A stretch of 48,184 bases of DNA from an uncultured Gammaproteobacteria bacterium (GTDB lineage Bacteria; Patescibacteriota; Microgenomatia; Levybacterales; UBA12049): NCBI GenBank assembly GCA_964460145.1, contig CAYWPH010000003.1, forward strand, positions 1 through 48,184, in the 5' to 3' direction. A program made the translations under genes and the position numbers. Shown piece after piece: positions 9,457 to 17,653 of this stretch (within the stretch, counting starts at the first letter, position 1; each line of letters starts with the position of its first letter). Under the pieces are notes generated by a model that saw nothing but the letters and a program-made list of their open reading frames with translations, was not told where the DNA came from and ran no database searches.

Positions 9457-10696
9457 TTCCGTACACCGCCCTCTTTATGTAATTATAAGTGCTTGAACAC
9501 TCTCTTTTAAAGTTGTAGATTGGTTTTCCTGCGCTTCCAGGCGCAAAACTGGTTTTTGAGTTCATTACATAGAGCATTGTTGCCTCGGCCATAGACTCGC
9601 TGGCAGGAATAGTTGTTCTTAAGGAGTAAGATTTTATAAAGCCTCTGTCGTAACACGTTTTATCTCCTCTGGCAAGGTTTCTTAGCCAAGACGTACTCAT
9701 AATAAGAGGTTGTGTTTGTTGTCTGATTTGATGTCCAGTTTCATGCAAAAGTAGAGGAGTTGGTCCATTTCTGTAAAAACAACTAAATCCAGACGAGTCA
9801 TTTACGACATAAAGCTTAATGTTGTTTGGTGTTAAAACATCCCCGCCGCAGCTATTTGTTCGGGCGCCGTTATAGACCCTAATCTTAAACGGTCCTGCTT
9901 TTTTTAACAAGTTATAATAATTTGAAGACTTGCTTGAAATCGCATACGTTCTATATATCGCTTGAAGATGATAACACGAAGAATCCTTAAATATTGTGTT
10001 TCCAAGATAAACAGATACGCCAAAAACACTCTTAAGCATATCCCATACTTGATTACAGGAGGGAACAGGAACCGGGCCAGGGCCAGGATCAGGAGAAGAG
10101 TTAGTAATTGTAATTTCAGGAGTGCTATATTGTGAACAGTTATCTTGATTAGATGAAGAGCAAACATTTACAAAAATATATATCTTTTGGTCGCTATTAA
10201 CTTTTGGCGGAGTATACGAGGTTGTTGTTCCTTGGGGTGCACTAAAAGTGCCTCCAATTTGAGGAAGATCCCAAGAATAAGTAACGTTTTCACTGCAGTT
10301 TTCAAGAGTAAGGACTGCAGGAACACTGTTGTTTATTGTCGTTGGGCTTGCGGTTAAACTCTTGCATGTAGGAGGCGCAGATACACCTGTAAAGATGACT
10401 ATAACTACAATAATAACCAATACAAAAAATCCTACGATTAAAGCAATTGGTCCCCAAACAGGAGCAGACGCTATGAGAGCAGATCCCGCAGCTACAACCG
10501 TTTGTCCGCCTCTAATTACAGTAGACGCAGTTCGTAATGTTTTTGCAGCTCCTTTTGCAGTTTTTACTCCTTTTTTGGCTGTTTCTAAAGTGCTTTTTGC
10601 ATTTCTTGCCGTATCAATTCCCTGATTTAGCCTGTCTATTGCGCTTTTTTGTTGCTTTTCTTGTCCTTGTCCCTCTTGTCTTTCGTTTTTATCCAT
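9437..10696 (-). CDS. Membrane-anchored ectoprotein with a C-terminal HExxH (zinc-metallopeptidase-like) domain
   Basis: 419 aa: charged N-terminus, one long TM (VWGPIALIVGFFVLVIIVVIVIF), a Cys-containing Ig-like stretch, a PDPGPGPVPVP linker, then LLLHETGHQIRQQ (HETGH encoded at 9731..9745). Confidence 0.5.
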   Translation of the reverse strand: MDKNERQEGQGQEKQQKSAIDRLNQGIDTARNAKSTLETAKKGVKTAKGAAKTLRTASTVIRGGQTVVAAGSALIASAPVWGPIALIVGFFVLVIIVVIVIFTGVSAPPTCKSLTASPTTINNSVPAVLTLENCSENVTYSWDLPQIGGTFSAPQGTTTSYTPPKVNSDQKIYIFVNVCSSSNQDNCSQYSTPEITITNSSPDPGPGPVPVPSCNQVWDMLKSVFGVSVYLGNTIFKDSSCYHLQAIYRTYAISSKSSNYYNLLKKAGPFKIRVYNGARTNSCGGDVLTPNNIKLYVVNDSSGFSCFYRNGPTPLLLHETGHQIRQQTQPLIMSTSWLRNLARGDKTCYDRGFIKSYSLRTTIPASESMAEATMLYVMNSKTSFAPGSAGKPIYNFKRECSSTYNYIKRAVYGNDYEFN

Positions 10697-10714
10697 AGAT
10701 TAATAATAACAAAA

Positions 10715-12547
10715 TTAAGGATTATTGGTTGATTCGCCAGCTTGGGGGTTGTTAGATTGTTCAGTTGATGCTTTTACCTGATCTAATATTTCCTGCGGAT
10801 TTGAGGTTATTGTTTCATGTTCAAAAGAAGCGGCAACAACCTGTATTGCAACATGGTTTTGTCCGGCAAAGAAAAGTCCTTCTCCAACGTTTGCAGACAA
10901 AAGCAGCTGTTTTTCACCGCTAGTTAAATAGAAAACATCAGATACAAGATCAATTTCTGAAGGGCTTTGTTTTAAAAGCATCTGAATAGATGAGTTAGAA
11001 AGTACTGCTTTTCCATAATCAGTTGAGAGAAAATCCCGAACGTCTTGGGTAATGGTTGTAAGACCTAGGTAATATTTTCTGCTTCTTTTAGCAATTGAAT
11101 AGACAAAAGAAGCTGAGTCTTCATATTTCATCATATACCAGGCTTCATCTAATATTAAAAGCCTTTTTTTAAGGTCTTTTTTAACCTTTGTCCAGACAAA
11201 ATCCAAGATTATGTGCATTGCAATCGGTCTTAGTTCGTCTTCCAAAGCTTTTATGTTAAATACGGTTAATGGATTTGAAATGTCAAAGTTGGATTGCTGG
11301 TTAAATATTCCGGACAATGATCCTTTAATAAATTTCTCAAGCATTAGAGCCAGTTCTTTTGCTTTTTCGTCTTCCATGCCAAGCAAAACTTTATATAAGT
11401 CTTCCATTAAAGGAGGCTGCTTTTTCTGCGTAGAGGGATCTGTTGTTATTCCTTTTTGTCTGTATGTTTCAACCAAGGCTCTATCTAATATTGCATCTTG
11501 GGTTGCGTTAAGTTTTCCCATAACGATTTTTAAAAGACCATGGAGAGAAAGTATTTTAAGTCCAAGTTCGTTTTCCCCCTCCTCATACATTCCGGATAAA
11601 TCAAAAGGATTGATTTTAATAGCAGAGGAGGCTGTAAAAGCAACTTCTTCTCCATCCAATTGTTTAGCAAGTTTTTCATATTCTCCTTCGGGATCAATGA
11701 CTATAACCTCAGTCCCAAACATAAACTGTCTGATAACCTCAAGTTTAATAAGATAGGATTTTCCGGCACCGCTTTTTCCCAAAATTACCTCATTTGCGTT
11801 TTCAAGGGAATACCTGTCAAAGATAATTAATGAGCCGTTTTGCTGGTTAATTCCATACATTACTCCTTTGTCTTGGGTAAGCATAGCTGAAGTAAAAGGA
11901 AAAGTTGAGGCAAGAGAAGTTGTATCCATATTTCTGGTAATATACAGCCTGTCTTCTCCAAGAGGAATGGTTGATTTAAACCCGTCTTCCATTTGTAAAG
12001 TAGCCACTTTTGGAAGTAAAAGAATTGAGCTTAAAGTCGCGTTTAGTCTTTTTGAAGCTTCGTTTAATTCCTGTAGGTCTTCAGAGACAAGAGATACGTA
12101 GAGGCTGAATTGAAAAAACCTTTCAATTCCTTTCGCAAGTTCCTCCTGAACGGAAAGAGCGTCTTCCAAGGATGCTTTTACCTTTGGATCTATATCCAGT
12201 CCCTCATCTTCATCTGAGGCAATTGTTGCTTCCATTTCTGCAATTTTTCTTCTTAGATCTGATAAAACGTCAGCAGTAAGCGAGGGATAAATAAACATTG
12301 AGATATCCATAGAGTGGTCAAAGTTAATCAAGGGCTCAAGCCAGTTTGGATTAACGTATCTTGGATAGCCTGCCACAAAAAATGTTTTATGAAGTTTTTC
12401 TCCGATTCTAATATTATTAAAATCAACCTCAATTGAGGAAGGGGATATGATGTCTGGAACAGAATTCATTCCTCTTTGCAAGCTCAGGATAGATTCCGGA
12501 ATGCTTGATACAGCTTGTGGTTTTTTGTTTTTCTTTCTTCCAAACAT
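10715..12547 (-). CDS. virB4: VirB4/TrbE/PrgJ-family T4SS ATPase
   Basis: 610 aa with Walker A LGKSGAGKS (11756..11779), Walker B RLLILDEAWYMM, TTITQDVRDF, and a C-terminal GEKQLLLSANVGEGLFFAGQNHVAIQVVAS, typical of monoderm VirB4 homologues. Confidence 0.85.
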   Translation of the reverse strand: MFGRKKNKKPQAVSSIPESILSLQRGMNSVPDIISPSSIEVDFNNIRIGEKLHKTFFVAGYPRYVNPNWLEPLINFDHSMDISMFIYPSLTADVLSDLRRKIAEMEATIASDEDEGLDIDPKVKASLEDALSVQEELAKGIERFFQFSLYVSLVSEDLQELNEASKRLNATLSSILLLPKVATLQMEDGFKSTIPLGEDRLYITRNMDTTSLASTFPFTSAMLTQDKGVMYGINQQNGSLIIFDRYSLENANEVILGKSGAGKSYLIKLEVIRQFMFGTEVIVIDPEGEYEKLAKQLDGEEVAFTASSAIKINPFDLSGMYEEGENELGLKILSLHGLLKIVMGKLNATQDAILDRALVETYRQKGITTDPSTQKKQPPLMEDLYKVLLGMEDEKAKELALMLEKFIKGSLSGIFNQQSNFDISNPLTVFNIKALEDELRPIAMHIILDFVWTKVKKDLKKRLLILDEAWYMMKYEDSASFVYSIAKRSRKYYLGLTTITQDVRDFLSTDYGKAVLSNSSIQMLLKQSPSEIDLVSDVFYLTSGEKQLLLSANVGEGLFFAGQNHVAIQVVAASFEHETITSNPQEILDQVKASTEQSNNPQAGESTNNP

Positions 12548-13206
12548 TATTTCCCCTCCTTTCCGCTTACTATTGATGACTTTTCTGATCCTTGGGTATG
12601 CGATGGATGAATAGCCTGCTCGTTAAAGATGTCATAGAAAAGCTTTATTAGTTTGTCTTTATCTAAGACTTCTGACTTTAAGCCAATTCTGTTTAGCTGA
12701 GACTTTATCGTATCTGCTTTAACGTGCAAGGCTGATCTTGCGGAAATGGCAAAAGCGTCTTTTGCGCCCTTACCCAAGGCTTGCCCTGCTCCCAAAGCCC
12801 CTTTTTCCAGGGCTGAATACGAAATGACAACGTAGAATTTTTTATCTAAAACAGTATTTATTTTAATAAGCTCTGCTACAAAGTTTCTATATAATTCGAT
12901 TTGTTTTGCAAGAGCTTGATTTTGGGTTTTTTTAGCTTCAGCTGCTAGGGAATTTAAATATGATGATATATCTACCTGTTTGCTTCTTACAACGATTTGA
13001 ATAGGGAAAGAAAGGGAATTTAATAAGGCAGAGTAGGAATATATTTTTGCGTCCTGTTCGTCAATTGACAAAAGTTCAAAGTTTGTAGCCTGGACTTCAA
13101 TTACTACGCAGGCATTTCCTCCATTTAAAACAACGATATCTTCATAAATATCACTTATTTCAATAAACTTTTGTGTTGAACTTTGTTTTAAGGCAGATTT
13201 TGCCAT
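12547..13206 (-). CDS. Hypothetical soluble protein translationally coupled between the PrgI-like gene and virB4
   Basis: 219 aa with no TM. TAATG stop/start overlaps at both ends (13204..13208 and 12545..12549). The N-terminal pattern (IEISDIYEDIVVLNGGNACVVIEVQATNFELLSIDEQDAKIYSY...FPIQIVV) loosely resembles N-terminal regions of conjugative ATPases. Confidence 0.4.
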   Translation of the reverse strand: MAKSALKQSSTQKFIEISDIYEDIVVLNGGNACVVIEVQATNFELLSIDEQDAKIYSYSALLNSLSFPIQIVVRSKQVDISSYLNSLAAEAKKTQNQALAKQIELYRNFVAELIKINTVLDKKFYVVISYSALEKGALGAGQALGKGAKDAFAISARSALHVKADTIKSQLNRIGLKSEVLDKDKLIKLFYDIFNEQAIHPSHTQGSEKSSIVSGKEGK

Positions 13207-14414
13207 TAGTTAAATAGAGACCTCCTTAGCTCTTCTCTTTTATCTACAGAAATAACTTCAATAGGCATAATGACCTGACCTGTTGCCTCAAAAGTAATGG
13301 TGTCAAACCTATTTTGTTCTTTAGGATCTTCAAAAGTAATTGTATATTTGCCGTTATTTAATGCTGTTGCTGAGGCAAAATGCCCAAGCGCGTTTGTTTT
13401 AAAAGCCCTGACTGCATTTCCTTCCGTGTCTTTTACTTCAACCAAGATGTTTCCCAAAGGATTTCCCCTTGGGTCTTTAATAATACCTGTCAGTAAATTT
13501 GGAAATTCAGGAGTTGTCGGAAGTCCTACGCTTTGAGTCATGTTTTGGGGAATACTCCGTACGTATTGCGTTTGTTTTGTGGGGTTTTCTTTTGCCATTG
13601 AAGGAGAAAACACTGGTCCCTGGGGTTGTCCTACTGTTTTTTGCATTTCAATAAGTCTTTTCTCAAGATCCTGTTTTTGGGAAAACATCTCATTTAGTTT
13701 TCCTTGAAGCTCTAACACTTTTTGGTGAGTTTCTAAAAACGCTTTTGAATCTATCCTATCTTCTTTTGCTTCTATTTGTTTTGCCTGAGCCAGCTCTTTT
13801 TCTAAAACAGCTGCGGTTTTAAGCAGGTTTTCCTGAGACAATATTTCATCAGGAGTTTTTACTGTTTGATCTTGTTTTTGGTTTTGCAATAGATTTGGTT
13901 GTTGGTTAGGAGCTTGTCTTGCAAAAAAATGTGATGGAATATTTCCAGGAGCTACATTCTCCTTTGGGATAGGAGCGGAGTACGAAGCTAAACTTTGAAA
14001 AAACACAGATTCTTTTTGATCGAGCTTATTTTTCCTTTTGGGAAATTTATTTAGAAATTGTCTAAACTGTTGATCCGATGACAACTTAGGATTAGCGCCC
14101 GGAGTTGTTTGCATAACAAGATTAGCTCCCTGTTTTTGATATACATATTGCGTTGGGCTAAAAACAGCCTTAAAAAAGTTTGCGATCATTGTATCAAGAG
14201 GTCTTCCTTCAATCGGAATAAACGCAAGAGCAACGCCTATTAAAACAAAAATTACTGCAAGAGGTATTTTTATAAAATCATTTAAGGGCGTTACGAAAAA
14301 AAACCAGCCTATTAAGACACCAACTGCAACGTAGGCAAACTGTTTTACAGTCATATCGCCTATAAGCTTAAACTGAAAGCCTGTAATGTCTTGTGGTATA
14401 GGATGGTTTTCCAT
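13206..14414 (-). CDS. PrgI/VirB3-like membrane protein fused to a Q/P-rich coiled-coil linker and a CarboxypepD_reg-like beta-sandwich
   Basis: 402 aa. The N-terminus (PIPQDITGFQFKLIGDMTVKQFAYVAVGVLIGWFFFV plus a second TM) matches the PrgI-family pattern. The C-terminus (GIIKDPRGNPLGNILVEVKDTEGNAVRAFKTNALGHFASATALNNGKYTITFEDP) matches the carboxypeptidase-regulatory-like fold pattern. Confidence 0.6.
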   Translation of the reverse strand: MENHPIPQDITGFQFKLIGDMTVKQFAYVAVGVLIGWFFFVTPLNDFIKIPLAVIFVLIGVALAFIPIEGRPLDTMIANFFKAVFSPTQYVYQKQGANLVMQTTPGANPKLSSDQQFRQFLNKFPKRKNKLDQKESVFFQSLASYSAPIPKENVAPGNIPSHFFARQAPNQQPNLLQNQKQDQTVKTPDEILSQENLLKTAAVLEKELAQAKQIEAKEDRIDSKAFLETHQKVLELQGKLNEMFSQKQDLEKRLIEMQKTVGQPQGPVFSPSMAKENPTKQTQYVRSIPQNMTQSVGLPTTPEFPNLLTGIIKDPRGNPLGNILVEVKDTEGNAVRAFKTNALGHFASATALNNGKYTITFEDPKEQNRFDTITFEATGQVIMPIEVISVDKREELRRSLFN

Positions 14415-14532: not shown

Positions 14533-14874
14533 CTATACGCCTAGTTTAATATTTCTTATTGCATCAACTCCGGTAAAGTCTGCAATGAGGTTGATTATGA
14601 AAAAAGAAAGAAAAACTACAATAAGGCCAATAAGGGCAAAAGTAAGCATTTTTCTGGCGCTATCAACACTTTTTGGGTCTCCGCCTGAGTTAATAAGTTT
14701 AATTCCTGAATAAATTACTAAAAATAGGGCAAAAATTGTTGCAACAATTAAAGACCAGTTGATTACAACTTTAATTATTTGAGGAATACAGCTTAGGGTT
14801 GGGGCGTCAATTCCTTCAGGGATACAAGTCTTCCAATCAACAGATAAGAATTCCATATAAGGTAACAATAGCAA
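14533..14874 (-). CDS. VirB2/TrbC-like T4SS pilin (paralog 5)
   Basis: 113 aa with a two-helix hairpin (TM1 LIVATIFALFLVIYSGIKLI, loop NSGGDPKSVDSARKM, TM2 LTFALIGLIVVFLSFFIINLI) and a Cys-x11-Cys loop before TM1. Confidence 0.7.
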   Translation of the reverse strand: MLLLPYMEFLSVDWKTCIPEGIDAPTLSCIPQIIKVVINWSLIVATIFALFLVIYSGIKLINSGGDPKSVDSARKMLTFALIGLIVVFLSFFIINLIADFTGVDAIRNIKLGV

Positions 14875-14898
14875 AGTAATTATTTTACTTCAAGTGGA

Positions 14899-15300
14899 TT
14901 ATTGAGGATTTGGTGTATCAAGGGTTGGTAAAGTGAACTCGCTTAGACTAAATCCTGGAATAAAGAATCCTATTATAAAGTTAAGTATGAAATAGGAAAG
15001 GAAGATTACAACTAATCCTACAATTGCTGCAACAATATGTTCTCTTGCTCCCTGAACTGCTGTTTTATCTCCGCCTGATGTTAACCATTTAAATCCTCCC
15101 CAGATTAAGTAGAGAAGGGCAACTATAACAGACAGAATGAAGATAAGGTTTATAAGACCGACAATTATTTTTCCAATCTCGGGTTCACAAAGTGGTTGAA
15201 ATCTTGTTCCCTCAGCTGCGCATAGGGTTTCAGCAAAAGCAGAAGGGACAAAGCTTAAGAAAGCTACTAGTGGAGTTAATGCTACAAGTACTTTTTTCAT
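14899..15300 (-). CDS. VirB2/TrbC-like T4SS pilin (paralog 4) with signal peptide
   Basis: 133 aa with a signal peptide (MKKVLVALTPLVAFLSFVPSAFA), a C-x10-C loop, and the hairpin IVALLYLIWGGFKWLTSGGDKTAVQGAREHIVAAIVGLVVIFLSYFILNFI. Confidence 0.75.
   Translation of the reverse strand: MKKVLVALTPLVAFLSFVPSAFAETLCAAEGTRFQPLCEPEIGKIIVGLINLIFILSVIVALLYLIWGGFKWLTSGGDKTAVQGAREHIVAAIVGLVVIFLSYFILNFIIGFFIPGFSLSEFTLPTLDTPNPQ
14942..15168. repeat. Direct repeat copy A (pilin paralog 4 core)
   Basis: 227 nt aligns without gaps to 15509..15735 (offset 567 nt). About 16 mismatches fall in the first ~114 nt; 15056..15168 is then 100% identical to 15623..15735 (113 nt). Confidence 0.85.
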
Positions 15301-15311
15301 GTATTAATTAA

Positions 15312-15340
15312 ATGCTAGGTTGTTTTTTTTATTTTGTCAA
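15312..15340 (-). promoter_or_regulatory. Sigma70-like promoter of pilin paralog 4
   Basis: Minus strand: TTGACA (15340..15335), 17 nt, TAGCAT (15317..15312), 11 nt, ATG 15300. No SD in the gap. Confidence 0.45.
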
Positions 15341-15378
15341 GACCCACTTTATGTTTGAATTTATTAAAAGTTGATTAT

Positions 15379-15870
15379 CTATTTTTTACAATAACAAACT
15401 AAGGTTCCGCCTACTAAAGTACAGGATTCTTTTTGTGGAGGTCTGCAGGTTACATGTCCACCGGTATATTGCCCACTTGGATTAGTGAGTGTTGGTATTG
15501 TAAAATTTCTTAGGCTAAATCCTGGAATAAAGAATCCGATTATAAAGTTAAGAATAAAATATGACATAAATATTACAACTAACCCTACGATTGCAGCAAC
15601 AATGTGTTCTCTTGCTCCCTGTACTGCTGTTTTATCTCCGCCTGATGTTAACCATTTAAATCCTCCCCAGATTAAGTAGAGAAGGGCAACTATAACAGAC
15701 AGAATGAAGATAAGGTTTATAAGACCGACAATTATATCTCCAATTTGTGGGTCGCATAAAGCTTTAAATTGGCCTTTTTTTGAACAGAGACTTTCTTTGG
15801 CCGCAAACGAGTATGATGCAAAGCTTAAAAAACCTACGGCAGAAAAAATAAATGAAGCCAATTTTTTCAC
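15379..15870 (-). CDS. VirB2/TrbC-like T4SS pilin (paralog 3) with a Cys-rich C-terminal tail
   Basis: 163 aa, GTG start, signal peptide. Same hairpin as paralog 4, plus a C-terminal extension (GGHVTCRPPQKESCTLVGGTLVCYCKK). Confidence 0.75.
   Translation of the reverse strand: MKKLASFIFSAVGFLSFASYSFAAKESLCSKKGQFKALCDPQIGDIIVGLINLIFILSVIVALLYLIWGGFKWLTSGGDKTAVQGAREHIVAAIVGLVVIFMSYFILNFIIGFFIPGFSLRNFTIPTLTNPSGQYTGGHVTCRPPQKESCTLVGGTLVCYCKK
15509..15735. repeat. Direct repeat copy B (pilin paralog 3 core)
   Basis: Partner of 14942..15168; see that entry. Confidence 0.85.
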
Positions 15871-15879
15871 TTTAACTAA

Positions 15880-15908
15880 ATCGTAGATGAGTTTTTTTCA
15901 ATTGTCAA
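15880..15908 (-). promoter_or_regulatory. Sigma70-like promoter of pilin paralog 3
   Basis: Minus strand: TTGACA (15908..15903, overlapping the stop of the upstream pilin), 17 nt, TACGAT (15885..15880), 9 nt, GTG 15870. Confidence 0.45.
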
Positions 15909-16246
15909 GTTTTAGGAAAAGGAATAGCGTCTAAAAGTTTAAACCCAAAAAATCCTGTTACAAAATTGATTATAAAAAAAGATAGAAATACTACAATAAG
16001 ACCAACTAAAGCATAGGTCATTCTTTGTTTTGCTGAAGCAATCTTTTGCTTATCTCCAACAGAAGTCATCCATAACCAGCCTGAATATATTAAAACCAAA
16101 AGAGCAAAAATTATTGCAAAAATAAAAAGATAATTGATGGAAGCTTTTAATATATCAATTAACTTAGCTTCTCCACCTGTTGGAATATTTATTCCCGCCG
16201 GTGGGTTAATTTCTCCTCCTGGAAGCTTTATACTTAGTAAACCCAT
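15905..16246 (-). CDS. VirB2/TrbC-like T4SS pilin (paralog 2)
   Basis: 113 aa with the hairpin FAIIFALLVLIYSGWLWMTSVGDKQKIASAKQRMTYALVGLIVVFLSFFIINFV. No Cys pair and no obvious signal peptide. Confidence 0.7.
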   Translation of the reverse strand: MGLLSIKLPGGEINPPAGINIPTGGEAKLIDILKASINYLFIFAIIFALLVLIYSGWLWMTSVGDKQKIASAKQRMTYALVGLIVVFLSFFIINFVTGFFGFKLLDAIPFPKT

Positions 16247-16252
16247 ATCTAT

Positions 16253-17653
16253 TTATTTAGTCTTTGGAATATCTATTAGTATATCTTTTCCGCTAGTTAA
16301 AGTATCAATCTTAAAAAGGTCATTGATTATAAATTGTAAAAGCACAAAAGAGAAAATGATAAACAAAAGTCCTACAATCGCAGAAGTTAATTCTTCTTTT
16401 GCTTCCTGCACTTTTTCTGGATTTCCTTGGGAAAACATCAGCTTATATCCAGCCCTGATTATTAAAAGAACAACTATGCCTCCGGAAATACCAAGAATTA
16501 CTTCAAGAATTTTGGGAATTAACTCTAGGGGGTCTGTGGGTAACCGGCCTAATCCGCTAAAAACTCCCGTACATTCCTCGCCATCACTTACTGTTCCGCT
16601 TAGACTTTTTTCGCAGGGCGTTTTAAGAGGTTTTGCTTTCTCTTGTTCTGCTGGGGGTTGTTCTGTATTTTTTTGGCATCCCTTTCCTTGAGTACAGGAA
16701 GAGCCTTTTGCACAATAAGCTCTTAACTCAGGTGCTATACAAGTACCGTTGTTCGAATCAGCGCAATATTGACCATTCCATGTATATGCTGCTCCACATT
16801 TATAACAAACATCGCCTAATCTAGTTTGTGCCCTAACGCACTTATTGCTTTCATCTTGACATATTAGATTATCATTACAATCTCCAGGATCGCCATTTGC
16901 TGGATTACAAGTTGAGTTTAATGACCCATACGTTTTGCATGCCTGAGGCGGACCAGGATTAGAGCAATAGCCTTCTCCAGCATTACAAGTAGTTCCTTCC
17001 GCTGAACAATCTACTCTTCTAATTGAAGGCACGTAATCTGTTCCTTTTGAGCAACGGTTATATTGGTAATTCCATGCGTATCCATCAGGACATAAAGGAC
17101 AGCTTTTAGGAGTAGGAGGATCTTCTGCGGAAAAACCAGCTGCAATGTTAATGTATAATGTCGTACTAATTCTCGTTGGATCGTAAAAAATTTGTTGGCA
17201 TTTACTGTCCATGTTTATATCTGTAACTGCCATGCCATAATCCCCCCTCCTAAAGGGATCTAGGTGGTCTCCAACTGTATTGCCATTGTGATCAAAGGCA
17301 TAATTGATAATAATGTTTCCGCCACTATCTGGATGGAACAAAATGGGCCCATCATTACCACTAATTACTCCTCCTTGTCCTCCGTACCCATCGGTTCGTC
17401 TAATAAAAACGTAATATCCCTGGCTTGGATCTGCGTTACCATTGGTGTTAATTATTAGGCCTGCTGGAATTACGCGGTCTCCTTCATCAAGATTTGTTGG
17501 CTTGTTTGGTAGAGTACATTCTCCGAATTCATCTGTGGCAAGCGCAGACATTTTAAATAAAGGAGACGCCCCTAGAATTACAAAAAGAGTTAGGAGTAAT
17601 AATAACTTTCTTAGCACGCTTTTATCGTAACTCAAAAAATAGTTAAATTGCAA
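16253..17653 (-). CDS. Large secreted Cys-rich ectodomain fused to a C-terminal T4SS pilin hairpin (paralog 1)
   Basis: 466 aa with a signal peptide and about 22 Cys (my count), mostly between aa ~150 and 345. Repeated motif CPDGYAWNYQYNRC / CGAAYTWNGQYC. The C-terminal 95 aa form a pilin hairpin (ISGGIVVLLIIRAGYKLMFSQGNPEKVQEAKEELTSAIVGLLFIIFSFVLLQFI). Confidence 0.65.
   Translation of the reverse strand: MQFNYFLSYDKSVLRKLLLLLTLFVILGASPLFKMSALATDEFGECTLPNKPTNLDEGDRVIPAGLIINTNGNADPSQGYYVFIRRTDGYGGQGGVISGNDGPILFHPDSGGNIIINYAFDHNGNTVGDHLDPFRRGDYGMAVTDINMDSKCQQIFYDPTRISTTLYINIAAGFSAEDPPTPKSCPLCPDGYAWNYQYNRCSKGTDYVPSIRRVDCSAEGTTCNAGEGYCSNPGPPQACKTYGSLNSTCNPANGDPGDCNDNLICQDESNKCVRAQTRLGDVCYKCGAAYTWNGQYCADSNNGTCIAPELRAYCAKGSSCTQGKGCQKNTEQPPAEQEKAKPLKTPCEKSLSGTVSDGEECTGVFSGLGRLPTDPLELIPKILEVILGISGGIVVLLIIRAGYKLMFSQGNPEKVQEAKEELTSAIVGLLFIIFSFVLLQFIINDLFKIDTLTSGKDILIDIPKTK

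Follow-up and report, generated by a model that had tools for sequence, protein, structure and literature searches.

The window analysed here, a stretch of 48,184 nucleotides (contig CAYWPH010000003.1 of assembly GCA_964460145.1, positions 1 to 48,184 of the forward strand) from an ultrasmall groundwater bacterium of the patescibacterial order Levybacterales, contains a type IV secretion system (T4SS) locus with five VirB2-like pilin genes. The product of the first of these, which we refer to as the long pilin, ends in a two-helix pilin hairpin and carries an ectodomain of ~340 aa between the signal peptide and helix 1. Among related arrays the hairpin is conserved and the ectodomain is hypervariable, with a distal module that is replaced as a cassette. 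It is plausible from these features that the long pilin is a host-contact protein, and on balance we lean towards a minor pilin of the T4SS fibre, or a hairpin-anchored adhesin, that displays a disulfide-braced, strain-variable binding head to a partner cell. VirB2-like T4SS pilins are known; the modular ectodomain, which is widespread in the order, appears to be new and seemingly absent from print.

Eleven full-length homologues begin (MLRKIL...) at the equivalent of codon 13 of the open reading frame (ORF) as counted in Table 1, and the true start is thus likely to be GTG at 17617, giving a 454-aa product; residue numbers refer to the 466-aa frame unless 454-aa numbering is stated. The signal peptide would be cleaved after ...SALA and before TDE, to judge from the AxA motif. 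A preliminary description of this DNA had proposed a signal peptide followed by a Gly/Asn/Asp-rich module, and both are present (the signal-like segment ends in ALA ahead of TDE, and the module spans aa 40-177). Its count of about 22 Cys for the whole protein was also right (22), and its figure of about 19 for the Cys-rich stretch proved slightly low, 20 of the 22 lying within aa 176-365 (18 in the Cys module and two in the loop ahead of the hairpin).

The pilin hairpin that had been proposed for the C-terminus, and its relationship to the other four pilins of the array, are well supported. The segment aa 377-442 (window 16328-16525) matches the PF18895 T4SS_pilin model with 39.0 bits against a gathering cut-off of 26.6 (E-value 8.5e-10; 43.1 bits in a six-frame search of the genome), and NCBIfam NF045849, a model of pilin-like conjugal transfer proteins, is also matched above its cut-off (42.2 vs 40 bits). 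When a profile of the four short pilins was compared with the long pilin by hhalign, the two aligned over aa 366-434 in 454-aa numbering (probability 97 %, E-value 1.2e-10), with pairwise identities between the long-pilin hairpin and the neighbouring short pilins of 26-31 %. AlphaFold2 predicts two long helices at 363-395 and 400-434 (454-aa numbering), and the hydropathy profile has peaks at 376-407 and 420-450 in addition to the N-terminal h-region. At 454 aa the protein is longer than a small stand-alone PF18895 subunit (~100-150 aa). In the region of the linker and pre-hairpin loop, residues P346, C347, C361, G369 and T373 are invariant in the homologues, and the linker itself (PPAEQEKAKP) has a low predicted local distance difference test (pLDDT) score in the model. 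Three of the four short pilins have an equivalent C...C loop ahead of helix 1, and because this two-Cys loop is common to both, the long pilin resembles a short pilin into which 300 residues have been inserted after the signal peptide.

The long pilin is one gene and not a merger of two, an outcome that the preliminary description had named as refuting its reading. It forms a single uninterrupted ORF in 11 full-length homologues, with at least 10 independent assemblies (NCBI, JGI and Logan) represented, and contigs from other groundwater and rock runs span its domain junctions; since the independent assemblies show the same architecture and gene order, a joining of two genes through assembly or sequencing error is exceedingly improbable. 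The dN/dS ratio is 0.13 over the whole length, and the gene is thus a functional coding sequence under purifying selection.

The ectodomains of the long pilins are hypervariable. We compared 23 arrays, comprising those of the window, of L001-L004 and 18 others. The hairpins of their long pilins are similar in all 253 pairs (median identity 52.6 %), whereas only 24 of the 253 ectodomain pairs give any BLASTP match at E<1e-3. On either side of the N module, L003 and L005 run collinear with the window at 79-92 % nucleotide identity; over ~17120-17600, the N module itself, they have no similarity to it. The 3′ break falls exactly at the start of the Cys module and the 5′ break inside the signal peptide. 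In P0010 the N module of the window protein is fused directly to the linker and hairpin, without the Cys module. Compared with L004, the ectodomain-coding DNA is 95-98 % identical, as against 82-92 % for the regulator gene and 73-89 % for the next pilins, and dS is 0.20 for the long pilin vs 0.55-1.2 for the flanking genes. The replacement of the N module, its different joining in P0010 and the contrast in identity with L004 together indicate that ectodomain cassettes are exchanged by recombination on a conserved backbone.

The position of the long pilin within its array is regular. It is the first pilin gene in all 23 arrays, of which the 18 beyond the window and L001-L004 were picked for containing a long pilin, and is followed by pilins of ~110, ~135-145 (sometimes duplicated) and ~100-110 aa. 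A regulator homologue adjoins it in all 18 of these and in L001-L004. In a maximum-likelihood tree of 93 hairpins, built on an alignment of only 91 columns, the 23 first-position long pilins and one tandem duplicate form a single clade (support of 99.9 in the Shimodaira-Hasegawa-like approximate likelihood ratio test), and the remaining 69 pilins group largely by array position. Because the hairpins cluster in this way, we interpret the array, on phylogenetic grounds, as four old, ordered, position-specific classes and not as a set of interchangeable variants. By its membership of the clade and its place as first pilin gene next to the regulator, the window gene is assigned to the long-pilin class, 'class A'; the preliminary description had likewise placed it first behind the regulator, and it is indeed the first of five PF18895 genes there.

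Fusions of this kind are not exceptional, contrary to what the preliminary description had suggested. When the search was restricted by length, it gave 131 clusters of 269-814 aa; each of them has a C-terminal PF18895 domain, and their varied ectodomains include FN3, PG_binding (PF01471) and SdrD_B. Genes for PF18895 proteins occur in 80 of the 81 genomes of the order, and ORFs of more than 250 aa hold 35 of the best 150 PF18895 matches, in at least 31 of the 81 genomes. The fusion of hairpin and ectodomain is common in the order and appears to be undescribed in the literature; the published accounts of patescibacterial T4SSs consulted here describe arrays of small pilins, with no mention there of ectodomain fusions, and no adhesins were detected in a survey of these systems (PMC12102498).

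The Cys module contains a real internal duplication, in keeping with the repeated motif (CxxC...W...C) noted in the preliminary description. The profiles of aa 181-238 and aa 279-332 align over 45 columns with Cys on Cys (probability 82 %, E-value 1e-5), and we therefore divide the module into repeat A, a five-Cys knob and repeat B. Across the 11 homologues 17 of the 18 module Cys are invariant, C305 being missing in the P0008/P0009/P0011 branch, and the aromatic residues W194, W292, Y284 and Y313 are invariant too. The full-length AlphaFold2 model (pLDDT 68) shows a beta-rich N module, with strands at pLDDT of about 70-85, and stacked short hairpins in the Cys module, which when folded alone (pLDDT 79) also gives short beta-hairpins. 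From the model the N module may be immunoglobulin (Ig)-like, a fold that it resembles weakly; its best Foldseek matches in the PDB are SKICH/FN3 sandwiches, at non-significant E-values of 0.03-0.2 and template modelling (TM) scores by target of ~0.5. A 33-36-residue stretch of the Cys-module model superposes on spider inhibitor-cystine-knot toxins with TM scores by target of 0.86-0.93 and a root-mean-square deviation of 0.7-1.3 Å, but at E-values of 2 or more; the TNFR-like and knottin rows of the Foldseek output are what any Cys-rich hairpin stack returns. The knottin fold has a six-Cys knot topology, and the central knob of the present protein has five Cys.

Each ectodomain module failed to match Pfam at E≤10, as did the whole long pilin in PHROGs, and a PDB sequence-profile search with the family alignment gave nothing at E≤1. 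Foldseek returned nothing usable for the full model against the PDB (best E-value 0.026, generic Ig-like sandwiches) or BFVD (best E-value 0.057), or for the Cys-module model against the PDB (best E-value 0.3). An exhaustive ectodomain search among 1.8 billion representatives found the Cys module in only four clusters at E<1e-10; beyond its own small family the search gave SprB-repeat-like matches to the N module, too weak (E-value 2e-4) for us to make that assignment. The Cys module is best described as a small orphan family, apparently disulfide-rich, with no solved relative. Of 120 long pilins, 104 have an even number of Cys, as do 22 of the 23 sampled here, and the genome carries two genes for DsbA-like proteins (PF13462), of which one is membrane-anchored and has a CPFC motif; these observations lend indirect support to disulfide bracing of the ectodomain, which is plausible. 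VKOR gave no match above threshold. We note that the membrane-anchored DsbA-like gene with the CPFC active site (L008, 1249-2019, on G000 contig C20) is seemingly broken by an in-frame TAA and may be a pseudogene or reflect a sequencing error; the other DsbA-like gene is found where contig C10 begins.

The genes of the locus are arranged in the order regulator, long pilin, four short pilins, PrgI/VirB3-like, TraC-like and VirB4, with dnaA and dnaN close by (Table 1), and the PF18895 array is encoded together with VirB4, VirB3/PrgI and VirB6-like genes. A six-frame search places all five PF18895 genes of the genome (0.77 Mb, 82 % complete) in this one array. Synteny of the locus is kept in L001-L004, and the order of the T4SS core after the array is the same in L002. 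The named homologues stem from metagenome-assembled genomes of Candidatus Levybacteria, and the sequence itself occurs in runs of groundwater and rock metagenomes. A promoter and terminator scan gave results no better than shuffled sequence. The layout is that of the published origin-proximal, relaxase-less patescibacterial T4SS with an array of VirB2-like pilins (PMC12102498). The T4SS pilins of Southlakia epibionticum are essential (PMC10633639, PMC11665869).

Table 1. Features of the long pilin and of its locus, in window coordinates
Feature	Position	Strand	Remarks
Long-pilin ORF	16253..17653	−	466 aa counted from TTG 17653; stop at 16253-16255
Predicted Sec signal peptide (MLRKLLLLLTLFVILGASPLFKMSALA, followed by TDE)	17537..17617	−	aa 13-39; from hydropathy; kept in homologues
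N module	17123..17536	−	aa 40-177; rich in G, N, D and I, beta-rich; one Cys pair, C46 and C152
Cys module	16664..17122	−	aa 178-330; 18 Cys
Cys-module repeat A	16958-17107	−	
Cys-module central five-Cys knob	16814-16957	−	
Cys-module repeat B	16664-16813	−	
PPAEQEKAKP linker and pre-hairpin two-Cys loop (C347...C361, FSGLG..PTDP)	16526..16663	−	aa 331-376
VirB2-like two-helix hairpin, PF18895 T4SS_pilin	16328..16525	−	aa 377-442
Short C-terminal tail, predicted extracytoplasmic	16256..16327	−	Low pLDDT
P-loop NTPase and OmpR-type winged-helix (wHTH) regulator	17660..18982	−	Directly upstream of the long pilin; Trans_reg_C, E-value 3e-21
Four short PF18895 pilins (113, 163, 133 and 113 aa)	14533..16246	−	Downstream; three further position-specific classes
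T4SS core after the array: PrgI/VirB3-like, TraC-like 219-aa protein, VirB4-type ATPase	10715..14414	−	
VirB4 ATPase	10715-12547	−	
dnaN and dnaA	6252-8840		

The array shares its domain family, and its setting in a chromosomal relaxase-less T4SS by dnaA, with the PF18895 arrays described in Patescibacteria (Wang et al., 2023, PMC10633639; Quinonero-Coronel et al., 2025, PMC12102498). Its size is within the range of 2-11 pilin genes of the 2025 survey, in which such arrays are abundant in Microgenomatia (PMC12102498). The published pilin copies are treated as small proteins and were suggested to be antigenic or host-range variants (PMC10633639, PMC12102498), whereas here one member has a 340-aa ectodomain and there are four conserved position-specific classes. 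Like VirB2, TrbC and TraA (PF04956), the long pilin is predicted to have a signal peptide and a hairpin of two helices that are joined by a short basic loop, with both ends of the protein outside; PF04956 itself is matched weakly by paralogues and homologues, with the long pilin below threshold. Those proteins differ, however, in being mature subunits of ~70-120 aa with no added domain, and the host of the long pilin is a monoderm without an outer-membrane complex. A pilin module fused to a bulky adhesive module and displayed on a filament is found in PilB and PilC of Streptococcus sanguinis, which are modular type IV pilins; these belong to unrelated pili with an N-terminal alpha-1 helix, and the added module is at the C-terminal end. 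The minor tip proteins VirB5, TraC and CagL of Gram-negative T4SSs may offer a functional analogy, since the reviewed model (PMC12857230) gives them the role proposed here, that of an adhesive subunit which is present in low copy number at the distal end and is assembled ahead of the major pilin; VirB5, however, is soluble and helical and lacks a pilin hairpin, and no similarity of the long pilin to it was found in Pfam or by Foldseek against the PDB.

The Trw T4SS of Bartonella has no coupling protein, and a diversified pilus surface has been proposed to give it host-cell specificity (PMC12857230, PMC12102498). There the variation consists of multiple tandem small-pilin paralogues of TrwL (VirB2), together with TrwJ (VirB5), whereas here it appears as allelic replacement of ectodomain cassettes on one pilin class. 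Among mycoplasma integrative and conjugative elements (ICEs), the pilin-like proteins Mbov_0395/MMCAP2_0565 are those of the NF045849 model that the long pilin matches above its cut-off; the hairpin also aligns inside the larger Mbov_0396/MMCAP2_0566-type membrane proteins (306-322 aa), far below the cut-offs (18 bits vs 70 and 90). The ectodomain is unrelated to the mycoplasma ICE proteins.

We envisage that the long pilin would be exported by Sec and its signal peptide removed, leaving a VirB2-type hairpin seated in the membrane with both ends outside and the 340-residue ectodomain joined at the position of the mature N-terminus of the short pilins. The ectodomain would fold outside the cell with some 11 disulfides. 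Its hairpin would let the VirB4/VirB3/VirB6-like machinery handle the protein in the same way as the three short-pilin classes, and it may be incorporated as a low-copy subunit, minor and possibly first-assembled or distal, whose ectodomain faces the partner cell as a surface-binding module. Specificity could then be altered as recombination swaps the distal N module and, in the longer term, the entire ectodomain, while the hairpin stays constant. Because the handle is constant and the outer domain is swapped between strains, we regard the long pilin as a candidate host-contact element. The one patescibacterium that has been tested genetically cannot live as an epibiont without its T4SS, and a pilin class found across the order, with a constant putative polymerization handle and a strain-swapped outer domain, is a testable candidate for the missing host-contact element.

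The proposal of a minor or tip pilin for host recognition, made in the preliminary description, stands in part: the separate first-position hairpin class, the hypervariable ectodomains and the N-module cassette fit it, while export and cleavage, disulfides, incorporation into a filament, copy number, location at the tip and binding are inferred. Several points weigh against it. The Pfam, PDB, Foldseek and BFVD searches linked the ectodomain to no known family of adhesins or lectins, so that the case for partner binding is built only on location and the pattern of evolution. No RNA runs carrying the locus were found. Positive selection gave no signal at the codon level in the one close pair examined (dN/dS 0.15-0.22, with 26 non-synonymous changes and low power). 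The constancy of the first position comes largely from arrays chosen because they contain a long pilin, and in at least three arrays among the matches listed in the 81-genome search the long pilin is preceded by a short one; nor does being first in the operon prove being first in assembly. Packing would be difficult if every subunit bore a 35-kDa domain, so that a sparse or terminal position is required and has to be assumed. To our knowledge no pilus has been seen in Levybacteria.

The main alternative, which we consider unlikely but less so than the others, is that the hairpin is a mere membrane anchor or docking handle, at the surface or on a VirB6-like platform, and that the protein stays in place as an adhesin or an accessory of the channel, with no filament. 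It would account for the lack of any observed pilus and for the many unrelated ectodomains borne by the same hairpin, as a generic anchor predicts, and it fits with the weak match of the hairpin within the larger Mbov_0396/MMCAP2_0566-type mycoplasma ICE membrane proteins (E-value ~0.002). Monoderm T4SSs are, moreover, generally without pili (PMC12102498, PMC12857230). A generic anchor, however, needs no dedicated and conserved hairpin class in a fixed order beside VirB3 and VirB4, nor does it call for all five PF18895 genes of the genome to lie in this one array, and the pilins are essential T4SS parts in S. epibionticum (PMC10633639).

Two other possibilities concern the ectodomain. It might bind the cell's own envelope, peptidoglycan or S-layer, so as to brace or space the T4SS conduit without any recognition of a partner; the wall-related PG_binding (PF01471) and SdrD_B domains in other long pilins of the group, the beta-sandwich extension that the adjacent PrgI-like protein likewise has, and the resemblance of the invariant W194, W292, Y284 and Y313 to carbohydrate-binding sites are all compatible with this. 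We nevertheless find it improbable, since a scaffold should be conserved, yet so few ectodomain pairs are similar (24 of 253) and near-identical backbones carry swapped distal modules. More improbable again is an effector or toxin precursor, with a knottin-like Cys-rich part that is cut at the linker and released onto or into the partner. The linker is disordered in the AlphaFold2 model and the short superposition on spider cystine-knot toxins might be read in this way, but toxin matches at E-values of 2 or more are to be expected of any small disulfide-rich hairpin, no protease site or processing enzyme is evident, and the linker and the loop ahead of the hairpin belong to the conserved pilin module.

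A bolder version of the minor-pilin reading, which we hold to be about as unlikely as a plain anchor, is that in the T4SSs of Levybacteria, and probably of other Microgenomatia, four ancient pilin classes encoded in a fixed order would form a heteromeric surface fibre in which class A replaces VirB5 as the first-assembled distal cap and the recombination-swapped, Ig-like N module sets which host cell the epibiont docks to. If true, this would make the pilin array a division of labour and not a set of antigenic variants. The four ordered classes as such argue against the published suggestion of interchangeable variants and point to a multi-component fibre.

Several other features of the pilins are worth recording. 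Locus L002 contains two tandem long pilins (10001-12356; 464 and 330 aa), and since their hairpins are identical while their ectodomains differ, the pair looks like a duplication with a different head. Short-class pilins also gain extensions, as in a 284-aa pilin at array position 3 of L019 and a 243-aa pilin at position 2 of L024, whose hairpins group with their positional class, outside the long-pilin clade. Short pilins 3 and 4 of the window (14899-15300 and 15379-15870, both on the minus strand) have nearly identical hairpins and are adjacent in the tree, which suggests a recent duplicate or gene-conversion pair; the class to which they belong is duplicated independently in L016 and L025, and short pilin 3 bears an additional C-terminal tail with four Cys (VTCRPPQKESCTLVGGTLVCYCKK). 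Contigs from other groundwater metagenomes show two joints: one at 16465→17659 (runs X3 and X4) skips 1193 bases and another at 16704→17122 (run X8) skips 417 bases. The sides of the joints are short (139 and 22 nt). Either alleles that lack the ectodomain or assembly chimeras formed where strains differ could give rise to such joints.

Elsewhere in the locus, the PrgI/VirB3-like protein (402 aa; 13206-14414, minus strand) has a C-terminal CarboxypepD_reg-like beta-sandwich, an extension shared with L002 (423 aa) and with several genomes of the order (full-length tblastn matches in L013, L015 and L018). A polytopic membrane protein of 676 aa, encoded at 22661-24691 (minus strand) and unmatched in Pfam, is conserved in L001, L003 and L004 (691-697 aa) and is presumably VirB6-like; the pilin hairpin hidden Markov model has a weak, spurious match inside its L004 orthologue. 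Between its gene and the regulator lies a gene (19057-22659, plus strand) for a 1200-aa protein, also without a Pfam match, which is syntenic in L001-L004 (1169-1287 aa) and diverges rapidly (72.6 % amino acid identity and dS of 1.2 vs L004), with only patchy DNA similarity to L003.

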